Source of the DNA: a virus
Direction: 5' to 3' (one strand)
IMG/VR virus record: IMGVR_UViG_3300010883_000001
Coordinates: 1-64,000 of that record
Length of the DNA stretch: 64,000 nucleotides
The notes beneath the pieces were generated by a model. It did no database searches, was not told the DNA's origin, and was given only the letters and a program-made list of their open reading frames with translations. A program made the translations under genes and the position numbers. The stretch's first letter is position 1; each line of letters starts with the position of its first letter. Shown here in pieces: positions 25,987 through 63,979 of this stretch.

Positions 25987-27882
25987 ATGGCAAATACATT
26001 CTCACTTCAGCAGTTGACGGAGGGCATCAGGCAGCGCCATCTCGGCACCCAGAACCGTCACCTAGTTGAAAAATGGACACGCACCGGCCTTCTTCGAGGA
26101 CTCGAGGGAACCGGTCGCGAAAATATGGCGCGTATGCTTGAGAACCAGGCAGCGCAAATGTTAAAAGAGGCTAGTGACCTGGGATCAGGTACGGCCGGTA
26201 ATGCTGACATTCGTGGTTTCACGAATATCGCCTTTCCAATTGTTCGTAGGGTCTTCGGTGGCCTCGTTGCTAATGAGCTTGTCTCAATTCAGCCAATGAG
26301 TCTTCCTTCAGGCCTCTTATTCTATCTTGATTATACGTACGGAACCACACAGGCTGGTGGTACAAATGTTGATGGTTCCGGTGCATATAAGGCCGGCGAA
26401 TCAATTTATAATAACCCCACCGGTAGAGGCGTACAGTCAGGATCTTTGGGTACAGGTGGACAGGCTGACTTGGCTGGTGCTGGTTATTCCCGTCGACATT
26501 CATCAAAAGATGTATCAATTGTTCAGACTACAAAGATTTTTGCATTCGGTGGTTCTTCATCGGCTACATTATCTGGTAATAACGCAGCTGTAACCGTTCA
26601 ATGTCATGCTACCGGTACTGATGGAAAGCTTTTACAGTTTGATCCTCAAATCACAAACTTGATTGAGAGTGAAGAGGGTAAGTTCGTTTTTGCGGCTGTG
26701 CCGTTTACGGCAGCAAACTTTCCTAGCGTTGATGCAACGATGATAAAAGATGTTGGTTTACAGGTATCAGGTACCGGTGGTCCTCTTGGTCAAAATAACG
26801 ACTTGGCTAAGATTCCTGCCGCAATTCAAGGTGGAAGCGTCTACAACATACGTAGATTAAATCAACTTGTTACATGGGATGGTACAAATGCCCCTGTTGC
26901 TGCACCGTTAGCAACGACTTCAACTGGTAATGCTCACGTCTTGTTAGTGTGTTCAGGCACACGTTGGTCTGATGCAGATGATAGTTTTGGCGTTTCATTC
27001 GTCAAGTCACCAGTTCTTGATTCAGCCTCCGGGGCCGCCGATACACTCGTCGTTCCTAGTTTCGAATCAGATTTTGGTACAAACCCTTCACCAGCTATTC
27101 CTGAGATTGATATCAAGATTGAGTCAATTGCAGTTACGGCTGTTACACGTAAGTTAAGAGCACGATGGTCACCAGAGCTTGCACAGGATTTAAATGCCTA
27201 TCACAGTCTAGACGCTGAGGTTGAGCTTACACAGATCCTTTCCGAGCAGATTGCCTTAGAGCTTGATAGAGAGATACTTGGTGATCTTCTTACGAATGCC
27301 AATGGTGCTAACCTTTACTGGTCACGCGCTCCTGGTAAGTTCGTTAATAAGGAAACTGGCGCAACTGTACAGCGTGCTTCTAGTCTCGATCCTGGACCTG
27401 CCTTTACTGGTACAGTTCGAGATTGGTATGAGACCCTTATTGAGACCATCATCGACGTTGCTAACACGATCCATCGCAAGACCCTCCGCGGTTCTGCTAA
27501 CTTTATCGTTGTTAGTCCTGACATTGCTACGATCCTTGAGGCCTCAGTTTATTACAGACCGTCTTACGGGCTGGATAGTGATGGCCAGGTTCAAGCGCCT
27601 ATGACGCTTGGTGCCGACAAGGTTGGTACATTGAGTAATCGTTTCACGGTCTACAAGGATCCTTACTTTCCACGCAACAGAATTCTTGTTGGGTATAAGG
27701 GTGGTAGCTATCTTGAGACTGGTTATGTATATGCTCCGTATGTACCTCTTATCGTTACGCCAACGATTTTCGCGCCTGAGGATTTCACCCCACGTAAGGG
27801 TGTCATGACTCGTTATGGTAAGAAGATGGTTCGTTCCGATTTTTACGGTACTGTTACATGTCTTGATTTGAACATCATCTAA
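25987..27882 (+). CDS. Major capsid protein (T4 gp23-like)
   Basis: FPIVRRVF, VSIQPMSLPSGLLFYL, RKLRARWSPELAQDLNAYH, LEAEVELT-like LDAEVELTQILSEQI, YAPYVPL and GVMTRYG. Strong AAGGAG RBS. Confidence 0.97.
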   Translation: MANTFSLQQLTEGIRQRHLGTQNRHLVEKWTRTGLLRGLEGTGRENMARMLENQAAQMLKEASDLGSGTAGNADIRGFTNIAFPIVRRVFGGLVANELVSIQPMSLPSGLLFYLDYTYGTTQAGGTNVDGSGAYKAGESIYNNPTGRGVQSGSLGTGGQADLAGAGYSRRHSSKDVSIVQTTKIFAFGGSSSATLSGNNAAVTVQCHATGTDGKLLQFDPQITNLIESEEGKFVFAAVPFTAANFPSVDATMIKDVGLQVSGTGGPLGQNNDLAKIPAAIQGGSVYNIRRLNQLVTWDGTNAPVAAPLATTSTGNAHVLLVCSGTRWSDADDSFGVSFVKSPVLDSASGAADTLVVPSFESDFGTNPSPAIPEIDIKIESIAVTAVTRKLRARWSPELAQDLNAYHSLDAEVELTQILSEQIALELDREILGDLLTNANGANLYWSRAPGKFVNKETGATVQRASSLDPGPAFTGTVRDWYETLIETIIDVANTIHRKTLRGSANFIVVSPDIATILEASVYYRPSYGLDSDGQVQAPMTLGADKVGTLSNRFTVYKDPYFPRNRILVGYKGGSYLETGYVYAPYVPLIVTPTIFAPEDFTPRKGVMTRYGKKMVRSDFYGTVTCLDLNII

Positions 27883-27912: not shown

Positions 27913-27946
27913 AGGGAGGGCGAATTCGCCCTCCCTTTTTATTTTT
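27913..27946 (+). terminator. Rho-independent terminator after the major capsid gene
   Basis: Perfect inverted repeat AGGGAGGGCG-AATT-CGCCCTCCCT followed by TTTTATTTTT. Confidence 0.9.
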
Positions 27947-28022: not shown

Positions 28023-28289
28023 ATGGCATCTAGAACCCCCAAACCGGCATTAAAAGCTATAGCTAAGCCGGCAAAAAAGACATCTCCAACAAAAACAACC
28101 AAAACAACCAAAGCAAGCGTATCAACCGATAAACAAGTCAAAGAATTGACTGATCGCTTGACCATCATGGAAAATAAAGTAGAAAGTTTCATAAATTTAG
28201 TCGAGCGTGAATTTTCTTCAGAATTACTTTTAGGACCCCGAGGTCTAGGAAAGAGGATTCGCAAATTTCTCAACGGGGATCCCGAGTAA
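28023..28289 (+). CDS. Small basic protein (Lys/Thr/Pro-rich N-terminus plus coiled coil)
   Basis: AAGGAG RBS; ASRTPKPALKAIAKPAKKTSPTKTTKTTK followed by a heptad segment. Confidence 0.65.
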   Translation: MASRTPKPALKAIAKPAKKTSPTKTTKTTKASVSTDKQVKELTDRLTIMENKVESFINLVEREFSSELLLGPRGLGKRIRKFLNGDPE

Positions 28290-28315: not shown

Positions 28316-28370
28316 GCATTTAGGTCCGTACCTTTGATCAGCTGAAACTGCCGGCGGTACGAGAGCATGC
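28316..28370 (+). ncRNA. Candidate structured 5' leader RNA
   Basis: GC-rich intergenic island with nested pairings GCAT/ATGC, CGTACC/GGTACG and CAG/CTG, ending just before the AAAGGAG RBS of 28392. Confidence 0.4.
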
Positions 28371-28391
28371 AGATAATAAAGGAGAAAGATC

Positions 28392-28907
28392 ATGCCACAG
28401 GTAAAATTTACAGATAAAAAAGGCTTACATCAGGTTGCCGGCGGCGGTATACAAATAACCGGCGGACAGATGAATTCTAAGCGTAACGTTATTGCACTAA
28501 CCGATGCCGCTGCTGATTCGGCAATACGTGTCCCGTTAACAATTGCAGAATCAGGTGCTATTATAACGGTCCCGGCAATGACCGTGGATAACCAGACACT
28601 AGTTCTGCCGGTCCTTACGGCTAGTACGGTTGGGTGTACATACACATTCGTCATGGTCGGTACCGCTGCCCAGACTCTAACGATTTCAACTCCCGGAGCT
28701 GAGAAGATACTGGGTGTTCTTCCAAAGGGTGACGGTGACAACATGGCTGCTGGTGCAGCATTTGACACCTTGACAGTCGCTGCCACTGCTCTAATGAGCA
28801 CGTCTTGGACACTTACATGTATCTCTGCTACGGCAGGTGTCGCATGGCTTTGCCATGGCGTACAGGACGGCGTTGCGGCCAACACACTTAGTCTAGCCTT
28901 AGCTTAA
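28392..28907 (+). CDS. Putative capsid decoration/minor virion protein (beta-rich)
   Basis: Strong RBS; Ala/Thr/Gly-rich; TLVLPVLTASTVGCTYTFV beta motif; located shortly after the MCP. Confidence 0.5.
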   Translation: MPQVKFTDKKGLHQVAGGGIQITGGQMNSKRNVIALTDAAADSAIRVPLTIAESGAIITVPAMTVDNQTLVLPVLTASTVGCTYTFVMVGTAAQTLTISTPGAEKILGVLPKGDGDNMAAGAAFDTLTVAATALMSTSWTLTCISATAGVAWLCHGVQDGVAANTLSLALA

Positions 28908-28928: not shown

Positions 28929-28950
28929 ATCCCCCCCTTCGGGGGGGGAT
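28929..28950 (+). terminator. Stable C(UUCG)G hairpin (terminator or mRNA-stabilising stem)
   Basis: ATCCCCCCC-TTCG-GGGGGGGAT; the downstream U-tract is weak. Confidence 0.65.
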
Positions 28951-28978
28951 TCATCTATTCTATTATGAGGACTAAAAA

Positions 28979-29512
28979 ATGAGACATGGACTAGAAAAAT
29001 TGAGAAACCTTGTAGACGGTTTAACTGATCGTGATGTCCAGCTTAAAGAAGAGACAAAGCTTTTAGATCATATATTCACAAGTTTTCCAATACCGTTATT
29101 GGTTTGGTCTGTTGACGTTAATGGAAAGGTTAGGGCACTTAAGGGAAATAGCATAATGAACCCTAGCGCAAAGTTAGAGGACGAGTTATTTTCTGAAAAG
29201 AATGTGAAAAAAGCTCTACGTGAATGTAAGTCTGATGCTGAGAAATCAGATGATAAAAAGGCACATAAGTTTTTGGACACAAATGGAAAAGTGTTCTACA
29301 TGACGATTACCAGGAGATTCACCCAAGAAGGCGATGAGCTAGGATATTTAGGGATGGCTTGGGATATTACTTCAAATGCCATAATACTTAGAAATATTAA
29401 TATGATATACTCCGAAGCATTAGAAGATTGTAATAAGCAAAAAATACTTAGCTTATGCCATGAAGCGTTAAGTGCTAACCAGCTAGCAAAACTAATGGCT
29501 GAAGAGAGATAA
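28979..29512 (+). CDS. Stand-alone PAS-domain protein
   Basis: Coiled coil, then the PAS entry LLDHIFTSFPIPLLVWSVDVNGKV and the PAC terminus FYMTITRRFTQEGDELGYLGMAWDIT. No output domain. Confidence 0.75.
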   Translation: MRHGLEKLRNLVDGLTDRDVQLKEETKLLDHIFTSFPIPLLVWSVDVNGKVRALKGNSIMNPSAKLEDELFSEKNVKKALRECKSDAEKSDDKKAHKFLDTNGKVFYMTITRRFTQEGDELGYLGMAWDITSNAIILRNINMIYSEALEDCNKQKILSLCHEALSANQLAKLMAEER

Positions 29513-29514
29513 AA

Positions 29515-29844
29515 ATGTCTGCAGATAATCAAAATGGGTGGAATGAGTATTCTAGACTTGTTCTTAAGGAGCTAGAGACACTTGCTGGTGGCATAGATGG
29601 CCTAAAGACTGATATTCAAGAGTTAAGATCTGAAGTTGCTATAATTCATTTAAAAGAAGACAAGGTTAAAGAATTAGGGTTATGGAAATCAAAGATTGAT
29701 GAAATAGCTTCTCCTACACACTTACAGAAGATGACAACTGAGATAGAAGATTTGAAATCTTTTAAGACGAAGGCTATCACTATATTTGCAGTAGTTCAGT
29801 TTACCATGGCTGCAATTTTGTTTGCAAAGAATTTTGTATCTTAA
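29515..29844 (+). CDS. Coiled-coil protein with C-terminal transmembrane anchor (XhlA/holin-accessory-like topology)
   Basis: Heptad repeats followed by the hydrophobic stretch AITIFAVVQFTMAAILFA. Starts 2 nt after the PAS gene stop. Confidence 0.55.
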   Translation: MSADNQNGWNEYSRLVLKELETLAGGIDGLKTDIQELRSEVAIIHLKEDKVKELGLWKSKIDEIASPTHLQKMTTEIEDLKSFKTKAITIFAVVQFTMAAILFAKNFVS

Positions 29845-29888
29845 TTCTTTGTTTTCATTTTTATAATTAGTCTTATACGATCGGAGAT

Positions 29889-31061
29889 GTGATGGCGACA
29901 TTTGCACAGACATTAAAACCAACACCTTTTGGGTTTTTTGATGGTGATAAAACATTCCAGACCGATGCTGATTCAATGGTCACTTATACTAAGAGAAAAT
30001 TGGGAGATGATATTCTTAGCGTTGAGCTGACAAAAAGGCAGGTTTGGGCATGCTTTGAAGAATCTTTTTTAGAGTTTGGATCTATAATAAATCAAGCCCA
30101 GGCAAAATCTCAACTAGGTAATTTATTGGGAAATGCAACCGGAAGTTTAAGTGGCTCTGAACAAAAGTTTCCCCGCGAAAATTTAGAGTTTATGCTTAGG
30201 CGAGGTGAACCATATGCAATGGAAGCCGGTCTAGGCGGCTCTTATGACACACTTTCAGGTAGTATAGCACTAGAAACGAATAGGCAAGATTACGATATAT
30301 ATACTGAGTTATCTGACTCTGCTGGAAATGCTCTTTTTACCAGTGCAAATAATAATCCTCGTACTAAAATGAGGATATTTGAGGTATTTCATTTTTCTAA
30401 CCAGGCAGCATATAGATTTTTCGATACTACGTCTGCAATAAATTATCTTAATAATGAATTTTCTTTTGAGTCTTTTACACCCGAAACGGTTTTTTATGTA
30501 CTTCCTGTCTTTGAAGATATTTTACGTGGTGGCATGCTTGATATGTCATCTAGGGTTAGGAGATCGAATTATTCGTATAAGATTACCGGGACAAAACTAA
30601 GAGTATACCCTGTTCCTACCAAGGGTACACCTGGGAAATTATGGGTAAGAGTTGGATTTTCTCCTGACGTACTAAATCCAGCATATAGCGATTCATCAAT
30701 ATCAGGTGTCAGTAATTTATCAAATGTCCCATACGGAAATTTAGAGTACGGAAAGATAAATAGCATAGGTCGGCAATGGACCCGCCAATATGCATTTTCA
30801 TTAGCGAAAGAGTTATTAGGGCAAGTTAGATCAAAATTTGCATCAGTGCCAATTCCGGGGGGTGATCTATCATTAAATGGGGGAGATCTAATATCACAGG
30901 CAAGAGAAGAACAGGATAAATTAAGGACTAATATGATTGAATTACTTGACTCTCTAACCTATAGCAAGTTATTAGAGGATGAAGCCGGCGCTGCCGAGAA
31001 CCTACAAACAATACTAAAGTCTATACCCATTCCAAATGGGCAAGCTATCATAGTAGGATAA
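29889..31061 (+). CDS. Neck/head-tail adaptor protein (T4 gp13-like)
   Basis: KRKLGDDILSVEL and WTRQYAFSLAKELLGQVRSKFASVPIPGGDLSLNG match the gp13-type pattern. Confidence 0.75.
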   Translation: MMATFAQTLKPTPFGFFDGDKTFQTDADSMVTYTKRKLGDDILSVELTKRQVWACFEESFLEFGSIINQAQAKSQLGNLLGNATGSLSGSEQKFPRENLEFMLRRGEPYAMEAGLGGSYDTLSGSIALETNRQDYDIYTELSDSAGNALFTSANNNPRTKMRIFEVFHFSNQAAYRFFDTTSAINYLNNEFSFESFTPETVFYVLPVFEDILRGGMLDMSSRVRRSNYSYKITGTKLRVYPVPTKGTPGKLWVRVGFSPDVLNPAYSDSSISGVSNLSNVPYGNLEYGKINSIGRQWTRQYAFSLAKELLGQVRSKFASVPIPGGDLSLNGGDLISQAREEQDKLRTNMIELLDSLTYSKLLEDEAGAAENLQTILKSIPIPNGQAIIVG

Positions 31062-63586: not shown

Positions 63587-63979
63587 ATGGCATATTCTAA
63601 AAAAGTTATAGATCACTATGAAAACCCTAGAAATGTTGGTGCATTAGACAAGGATGATTTGAGGGTTGGAACAGGATTAGTCGGTGCTCCCGCATGCGGA
63701 GATGTGATGCGCTTACAGATTAAAGTTGATGAAAATGAAAAAATAATAGATGCTAAATTCAAAACATATGGCTGCGGATCCGCAATTGCTGCATCTTCTT
63801 TGTTAACTGAGTGGATAAAAGGACGCACAATAAATGAAGCGCTTGAAATTAAAAATACTGAAATAGTAGAATATCTAAGCTTACCACCAGTAAAAATACA
63901 CTGTTCTGTTTTAGCTGAAGATTCAATACGGGCAGCTATAAAAGATTATAGGAGTAAAGTTAGTGAAGTGGACTACTGA
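63587..63979 (+). CDS. iscU: Fe-S cluster assembly scaffold IscU
   Basis: YSKKVIDHYENPRNVG, GAPACGDVM, FKTYGCGSAIA and LPPVKIHC (three Cys ligands plus the HscA-binding LPPVK motif). Confidence 0.96.
   Translation: MAYSKKVIDHYENPRNVGALDKDDLRVGTGLVGAPACGDVMRLQIKVDENEKIIDAKFKTYGCGSAIAASSLLTEWIKGRTINEALEIKNTEIVEYLSLPPVKIHCSVLAEDSIRAAIKDYRSKVSEVDY

Follow-up and report, generated by a model that had tools for sequence, protein, structure and literature searches.

A stand-alone PAS protein and its tail-anchored membrane partner in large uncultured ocean phages, a possible regulator-effector module at the inner membrane

This study concerns two adjacent genes at positions 28979 to 29844, + strand, of a 64,000-nucleotide stretch of viral DNA that forms the first 64 kb of the 145-kb IMG/VR virus record IMGVR_UViG_3300010883_000001 (this whole stretch is called the window; the record has a CheckV completeness estimate of about 52%). 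The first gene encodes a 177-amino-acid (aa) protein, here called A, which is confirmed as a real PAS-fold protein, and the second encodes a 109-aa coiled-coil protein, B, which is anchored in the membrane by its C-terminal tail and is a core gene of a large uncultured ocean phage group. Across relatives the two genes are strictly linked, B is well conserved and A much less so, and the PAS domain is modular, being present in some partners of B and absent from others. Our leading guess, a tentative one held at somewhat less than even confidence, is that the pair is an inner-membrane regulator-effector module whose output is the timing of lysis. PAS domains, short effector-less PAS proteins and the control of lysis by a phage PAS protein through transcription (VqmA) are already known; our search of the literature turned up no account of a stand-alone PAS protein tied to a tail-anchored partner in the membrane, and none of membrane protein family B.

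The initial annotation of this DNA had placed both open reading frames (ORFs) here with a 2-nt spacer between them, and the ORF listing and the sequence itself agree: on the + strand, the TAA stop of A at 29510-29512 is followed by AA and then by the ATG of B at 29515. The pair and its parts are as follows.

28979-29512, + strand: gene of A, the 177-aa stand-alone PAS protein (ORF; family of 45 representatives, PAS_4, AlphaFold2 (AF2), PDB PAS matches)
28982-29080, + strand: long N-terminal helix of A, residues 2-34 (AF2; column conservation)
29096-29365, + strand: PAS core of A, residues 40-129, ending in G-x-x-G-M-A-W-D-I-T (AF2, Foldseek, shape search)
29369-29506, + strand: three C-terminal helices of A after the DIT motif, residues 131-176 (AF2)
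29515-29844, + strand: gene of B, the 109-aa tail-anchored coiled-coil membrane protein (ORF; core gene of the phage group)
29530-29583, + strand: near-invariant N-terminal motif of B, QNGWNEYSRLVLKELETL (alignments A2, A4 and A6)
29770-29832, + strand: C-terminal transmembrane (TM) helix of B, about residues 86-106 (hydropathy, conservation)

In A, a PAS core stands between an N-terminal helix and C-terminal helices, and an output domain is lacking; no kinase, GGDEF or HTH domain is present in it. At the level of sequence, A of the window lies below threshold for Pfam PAS_4 (E 0.012, 16.3 bits vs a cut-off of 23.1) and reaches 18.4 bits for TIGR00229 (E 0.0018, cut-off 22.9). PAS_4 is matched by 12 of the 31 aligned members of the A family, with a best E of 6e-8, record P0157 has a precomputed PAS_4 match, and the family profile (alignment A5) matches the PAS part of PDB 3cax (E 1.6e-4). 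A word-indexed search with A returned four close homologues, and an exhaustive profile search returned 45 family representatives at E<=1e-3, nearly all of 130-200 aa.

The structural evidence points the same way. An AF2 model on the 31-sequence alignment has a pLDDT of 91 and a pTM of 0.74, and replaces an earlier run on 5 close homologues only (pLDDT 57). In this model helix 2-34 is followed by strands 40-46 and 50-56, helix 74-89, strands 94-101, 104-114 and 120-129, and helices 131-176, which makes the PAS core five-stranded (two strands, helices, three strands). The top-ranked Foldseek matches listed from the PDB are PAS/LOV domains or PAS-containing sensors with probability 1.00, and the PDB matches include 3cax, 2qkp, Rv1364c, DosP, FixL, NifL, short LOV proteins and phage VqmA; among viral models, an uncultured Caudovirales phage provides the top match, a 169-aa protein labeled "PAS domain". 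The PAS fold without a fused output domain, proposed initially from the letters of the window, is upheld by the pLDDT, by the PAS/LOV matches in the PDB and by the PAS_4 matches of relatives. Within the family, conservation is highest in the N-terminal helix (L8, L11, L15, R18, D19 and K23), followed by P37, W43, G122 and D129.

The shape of A also invites a different explanation. In the ESM Atlas, the whole A model (residues 1-177) overlays the helix-PAS-DHp part of sensor kinases, with 150-168 residues aligned and, in the better rows, a TM-score of 0.70-0.76 by query, and two weak matches of the A profile are proteins of 1,198 and 1,467 aa with several matched stretches each. It could be speculated from this superposition on a helix-PAS-HisKA arrangement, and from the two profile matches, that A mimics host sensor kinases as a decoy, being a PAS domain with a DHp-like tail that lacks the catalytic domain and jams two-component signaling, while B localizes A at the membrane. 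We consider this improbable. No HisKA sequence match occurs among the 31 members of the A family, and the family alignment holds no conserved His in the C-terminal helices 131-176. Half of the phages, moreover, use an 80-aa non-PAS partner in the place of A, so that the conserved function cannot depend on the PAS domain or on kinase mimicry.

The linkage of the two genes was counted in 80 IMG/VR loci encoding B. A PAS-form A lies directly upstream of B in 34 of them, and a short, all-helical partner of 64-93 aa that lacks a PAS domain is found in 39, directly upstream of B in 38 of the 39; in 3 loci the contig ends just 5' of B. The gaps between the two genes are mostly -8 to +4 nt, with start and stop abutting or overlapping in 72 of the 77 assessable loci. 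Every PAS-family gene that can be placed directly precedes B, in the 34 IMG/VR loci as well as in the metagenome loci L002-L012 and L095-L097 (TARA and others), and this includes divergent family members that are 17-20% identical to A of the window in alignment A5. The expectation that the gene pair would be conserved in relatives is thereby confirmed. A 416-aa ORF at L067:6728-7978 lies between a short partner and B, the sole split pair in the 80 loci.

Against this background, it is very improbable that A and B are mere neighbors on a shared transcript, with unrelated functions and no coupling. Such a reading could appeal to the fact that binding between A and B is something that we infer, and to the loci in which B has no partner. 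The adjacency nevertheless outlasts relocation of the pair and 25-35% sequence divergence of A, the genes abut or overlap almost throughout, and a partner with the same N-helix motif is kept where the PAS domain is absent. One fusion protein also argues against it: P0171, of 293 aa and from one 6.3-kb ENA contig, joins A and B in frame and head to tail through a short basic linker. As a single record it is weak evidence, and the apparent joining may be natural or may stem from a frameshift error. Other records in which the N terminus of B is joined to GrpE, TPR, cyclase or other sequences (P0172-P0177) each come from a single short contig and were set aside as assembly chimeras or truncations.

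With PAS-form A the short partners share only the N-helix motif (SI-x-KLR-x-LRE-x-L vs LEKLRNLVDGL...RD), and hhalign aligns them with the PAS family over 30 columns with a probability of 79.5% and an E of 1.5e-5. In a tree of B, which has few columns and poorly resolved deep branches, partner types cluster and at least 2-3 switches are required. We read this as a PAS domain that is an optional sensor add-on to a fixed docking helix, with the membrane protein as the constant element. The initial annotation had treated the PAS domain as a constant feature of the system, and in this it has to be corrected: the core gene is B, which in roughly half of the related phages is paired with a helical non-PAS protein of ~80 aa. 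As such, A offers a natural example of modular signal input, in which a sensor domain is gained or lost on a fixed docking helix.

The membrane partner is both widespread and uniform. A database search with B returned at least 2,684 clusters at E<=0.01, the best 120 listed matches being 44-90% identical; its ESM Atlas neighbors are all viral, it is present in single copy in the 145-kb record, and IMG/VR contigs of phages that carry it reach 284 kb. No match to A or B was found by tblastn in 50,697 cultured-phage records, and a search for related loci with the single A protein as query found none. The coiled coil with a single C-terminal TM helix described initially is borne out, and hydropathy finds one hydrophobic segment only, at residues 86-104 (Kyte-Doolittle 1.91), with ~3-5 residues after the TM helix. 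Within the TM helix T89, F91, Q95 and M98 are invariant, a conserved FKTKA stands just before it, and the coiled coil has a near-invariant S-P-T break. B has no N-terminal signal peptide and has three conserved lysines before the TM helix, and the coiled coil should therefore face the cytoplasm in a tail-anchored topology. Searches against Pfam, PHROG, NCBIfam and PADLOC gave no fitting family beyond generic coiled-coil matches.

The rates at which the two proteins diverge add to this picture. Identity to the window proteins across relatives is 64% for the major capsid protein (MCP), 71% for gp13, 56% for gp14, 60% (median) for B and 31% for A. B is thus slow and A twice as fast, which is the pattern of a constrained effector and an adaptable regulator.

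The position of the pair varies among genomes. Of the 80 loci, 45 have a gp13 match no more than 8 kb away, and the pair stands between capsid and neck genes where both flanks are present; in the remaining loci it lies in an RNR-ClpP-...-DnaE block, among metabolic genes. The genome of the window has its own RNR-ClpP-DnaE block at 61-85 kb, from which the pair is absent, and we conclude that the pair moved as a unit. The virion-cluster setting described initially is therefore correct for the window, where the pair lies between capsid and neck genes, but does not hold as a general tie, as many relatives have the pair among replication or metabolic genes.

These observations bear on a non-lytic reading, in which B serves as membrane anchor and A as adaptor, the two together tethering an assembly intermediate of head or neck, a replication complex or a host protein, the PAS domain serving for dimerization, as a scaffold or in sensing the state of the cell. 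The conservation of B, which is like that of core virion proteins, and its invariant cytoplasmic N-terminal motif point to a conserved partner distinct from A, which evolves fast, and the frequent gp13 neighborhood with its capsid-to-neck position would suit a role in assembly. Precedents for the topology exist in Escherichia coli ElaB, YqjD and YgaM, which are C-tail-anchored proteins of ~100 aa with a cytoplasmic coiled coil and a TM helix at the extreme C terminus, as in B; ElaB and YqjD tether ribosomes to the membrane. They differ in being host stress proteins that bind ribosomes and have no PAS partner, and neither DUF883 nor any other Pfam family is matched by B of the window or by 7 relatives. 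A second precedent would be T4 gp40, a small chaperone (114 aa) of head vertex assembly that acts at the membrane and is encoded among the uvsX-40-41 replication genes, a setting in which B is often found. The gp40 sequence, however, has no hydrophobic TM segment, and B as a gp40 homologue was rejected (hhalign probability of alignment A6 0.1%; no PHROG gp40 match). Since the pair shifts between structural and replication or metabolic regions among related phages, it is tied by position to neither assembly nor replication, and no Pfam or PHROG family supports a tethering role. On balance we regard tethering as possible, though on the unlikely side.

Where many relatives carry the pair among early- or middle-type replication genes, it might instead act at the membrane early in or throughout infection, in superinfection exclusion or in the block of a membrane-based host defense, and not in lysis. 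Small phage membrane proteins are often used in this way, T4 Imm and Sp being examples. Genes of this kind are, however, usually variable accessory genes, and B is near-universal and highly conserved; nor is there any PADLOC or other family signal beyond generic coiled-coil matches. We find such a role quite doubtful.

Lysis timing is ranked first on the basis of the topology of B, its universality, the two-gene regulator-effector layout and a loose endolysin neighborhood; of these, only topology and the endolysin-type neighborhood, which is seen in other genomes, speak for lysis itself. In the RNR-ClpP-DnaE context, a gene with Amidase_2 and PG_binding domains lies 1.8-6.4 kb upstream of the pair on the same strand in 24 loci. 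In locus L093 the endolysin-type Amidase_2 protein has no signal sequence, and B is the only called protein with a TM segment in 20 kb. A third context is found in L010-L012, where a Peptidase_M15 gene lies at a distance of 2 kb and PG_binding genes adjoin the pair. Here (L010:5581-6429, also L011 and L012) a 139-aa PAS partner that lacks the C-terminal helices accompanies a 142-aa B, in which the unit WK-x-K-I-D-E-I-x-SPTQL is duplicated internally over 36 residues. The L010 contig shares four genes with the genome of the window and is thus probably from a related phage. A close homologue, P0048, is labeled in NCBI as a protein of a bacterial metagenome-assembled genome and is probably from a mis-binned phage contig.

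In the mechanism that we propose, B would be the conserved effector, with its coiled coil of ~85 residues in the cytoplasm, and the invariant glutamine of its TM helix probably drives self-association in the membrane. A would be the cytoplasmic regulator, made in step with B from abutting or overlapping genes, and its conserved N-terminal helix is probably what docks on the coiled coil of B. In the phage of the window and roughly half of its relatives, a PAS domain lies between this helix and the C-terminal helices, and it is conceivable that a cytoplasmic cue (a small ligand, or the redox or energy state) alters the hold of A on B. The output would most likely be the timing of a membrane event late in infection, B acting in a holin- or XhlA-like manner and A like a cytoplasmic antiholin, by analogy with T4 RIII. 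In its most specific form, the proposal is a sensor-gated holin: B makes the membrane lesion, A restrains it, and the PAS domain gained in about half of the lineages reads a metabolite, redox or energy signal. This version in full we hold to be rather unlikely. Were it true, burst timing would track host physiology without a transcriptional step, and the pair would represent a new holin-antiholin class and the first post-translational PAS sensor in phage lysis.

Several results weigh against lysis timing, and against sensing as its input. No XhlA or other holin sequence match was obtained for B of the window or for 7 relatives (Pfam, E<=1). Generic holins resemble B in being small membrane proteins with at least one TM segment (109 aa and one segment in B) but end in a charged hydrophilic C-terminal tail, for which the few residues that follow the TM helix of B leave no room; holins also usually show far weaker conservation than B. 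In the window, head and neck genes surround the pair and no endolysin gene is within reach, and the 145-kb record, about half of a genome, yielded neither an Amidase_2 nor an M15 gene in an Amidase_2 family search and in tblastn with the amidase, M15 and PG-binding proteins of relatives. In those relatives that do have an endolysin-type gene nearby, metabolic genes intervene, so that the association is a loose one. It is thus the high conservation of B, the missing C-terminal tail, the lack of a holin or XhlA signal and the head-neck position that weaken the case for lysis. Four of the 80 loci, in addition, carry B with no partner of either type within 8 kb and with ThyX abutting B. As regards sensing, the PAS core of the A family shows no conserved residue for the binding of a cofactor; an F-alpha His is present in 18 of 30 relatives and is replaced by Lys in A of the window. 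The PAS domain may accordingly be structural and not sensory.

The short LOV proteins of Pseudomonas (PpSB2-LOV and SBW25-LOV) share with A a cap helix, a PAS core and a J-alpha-type helix with no fused output, and short LOV proteins are among its Foldseek matches (7a6p, 7yx0 and 9vf7; 9-14% identity). A differs from them in having no LOV flavin-binding motif or cofactor signature (the LOV Cys motif was not found in A), in being encoded by a phage and in its strict genetic tie to a partner in the membrane. VqmA of vibriophage VP882 is a quorum-sensing receptor with PAS and HTH domains that triggers lysis (PMC8284805). It is likewise a phage-encoded PAS sensor tied to a lysis decision, and its structure, 7dwm, is among the fold matches of A; VqmA, however, works through DNA binding and transcription, in a temperate phage, whereas A lacks a DNA-binding domain and presumably has a membrane protein as its output.

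For B, a likeness in layout is offered by XhlA of Bacillus PBSX/SPbeta-type lysis cassettes (PF10779), which is likewise small, begins with a coiled coil and has one TM helix, at its C terminus. The resemblance to XhlA that was noted initially stands as one of topology and not of homology, given the absence of a Pfam match at E<=1. The nearest named Atlas cluster of B is a "putative holin" in which XhlA makes up 22% of members (score 0.91), and serves as a lead only. The two also differ in setting, as the XhlA cassette adjoins holin and endolysin genes and B of the window adjoins capsid-side and neck genes, and in host range, XhlA being found in Bacillota and the present phages being marine, with their closest cultured MCP relatives infecting Flavobacterium. 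For A and its short counterparts, a functional model may be found in phage T4, where RIII, a small helical cytoplasmic antiholin, acts on the cytoplasmic part of the holin T, a lysis protein with a single TM helix. In their size and predicted location, the short partners of ~80 aa resemble RIII. The sequences are not similar, T carries a large periplasmic domain that B lacks, and the likeness would be one of functional analogy only.

In whichever role, B is a core gene, as yet without annotation, of an abundant uncultured ocean phage lineage. Should the pair prove to control lysis, these phages would have their missing holin identified, and strictly lytic marine phages would sense the state of the host by a protein switch and not by transcription, which bears on burst timing and on marine carbon release. 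If it has another role, this would still be a core function of an abundant phage lineage, carried by two small proteins.

The surroundings of the pair form a distant T4-type morphogenesis block, and the large ORFs of the window are all on the + strand. The flanking features are as follows.

25987-27882, + strand: gp23-family major capsid protein (Pfam Gp23, E 2e-76)
28931-28948, + strand: C7-TTCG-G7 GC hairpin after a 171-aa gene and upstream of the pair (-24.6 kcal/mol, z -2.97)
28967-28971, + strand: GAGGA ribosome-binding site, 7 nt 5' of the ATG of A (read from the sequence)
29889-31061, + strand: gp13-like neck protein (PHROG 211; relatives carry Phage_T4_gp13)

The gp13-like gene is followed by a gp14-like gene and, further on, by two sheath genes. 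By capsid protein, the nearest cultured relatives are Microcystis phage Mel-JY01 and the Flavobacterium "immuto" phages, at 35-47% identity; an uncultured 484-kb phage record has a capsid protein 50% identical to that of the window.

Of the two elements that the initial annotation had taken to bound the pair, the upstream C(UUCG)G hairpin is substantiated by its folding energy and by its recurrence in relatives. L004, L005 and L002 have a hairpin at the equivalent position, that of L002 carrying a compensatory C-to-T/G-to-A change, and L006 has a canonical T-tailed terminator there; a simple terminator scan did not call the hairpin at 28931-28948. The downstream ATAATTA is present at 29863, but TATAATTA shows no enrichment in the window (5 found vs 7.4 expected). 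As a motif not above chance frequency it provides no evidence of a boundary, and its candidacy as a promoter or boundary motif was rejected.

Just 5' of the pair, at window positions 28392-28907, lies the gene of a 171-aa protein rich in Ala, Thr and Gly, with no Pfam or PHROG family match, which is present as two tandem 168-aa copies in L002; the conserved hairpin comes after it. One contig of a metatranscriptomic library covers 28341-28726, on this gene, the sole part of the region so covered; no such contig lies on the pair, a gap in coverage that carries no weight. The protein is possibly an abundant capsid-associated or decoration protein. Between the terminator of the capsid gene (27913-27936, terminator scan) and the 171-aa gene, positions 28023-28289 encode an 88-aa protein with a Lys/Thr-rich N terminus and a coiled coil. 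Twelve of the 80 related loci have it, in varying positions that are at times downstream of B.

Outside the window, Pfam scans of three regions of the same genome found no endolysin. A 153-aa protein at G000:C1:97652-98113 (L100:5653-6114) has a spanin-like layout, in which an N-terminal signal peptide precedes a coiled coil in the center and a TM helix at the C terminus; neither it nor its neighbors have a Pfam match.

The 145-kb record encodes RNR, ClpP, NifU, ThyX and a DnaE-type polymerase, at 60-80% identity to large marine viral contigs. A paper on "moraphages" lists T4-like gp13, sheath and capsid genes, DNA Pol I, a Clp protease subunit and glutamine synthetases among their genes, and does not mention PAS, holin or lysis (PMC12619734). 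From the several like kinds of gene, moraphages and the phage of the window may be related. Adjoining RNR in the record are NifU_N (window positions 63587-63979), which is 79.5% identical to the copy in L010, and ClpP (63963-64562 of the same genome), which is 76% identical to the copy in L093; together they are part of a conserved auxiliary block common to large marine phages.

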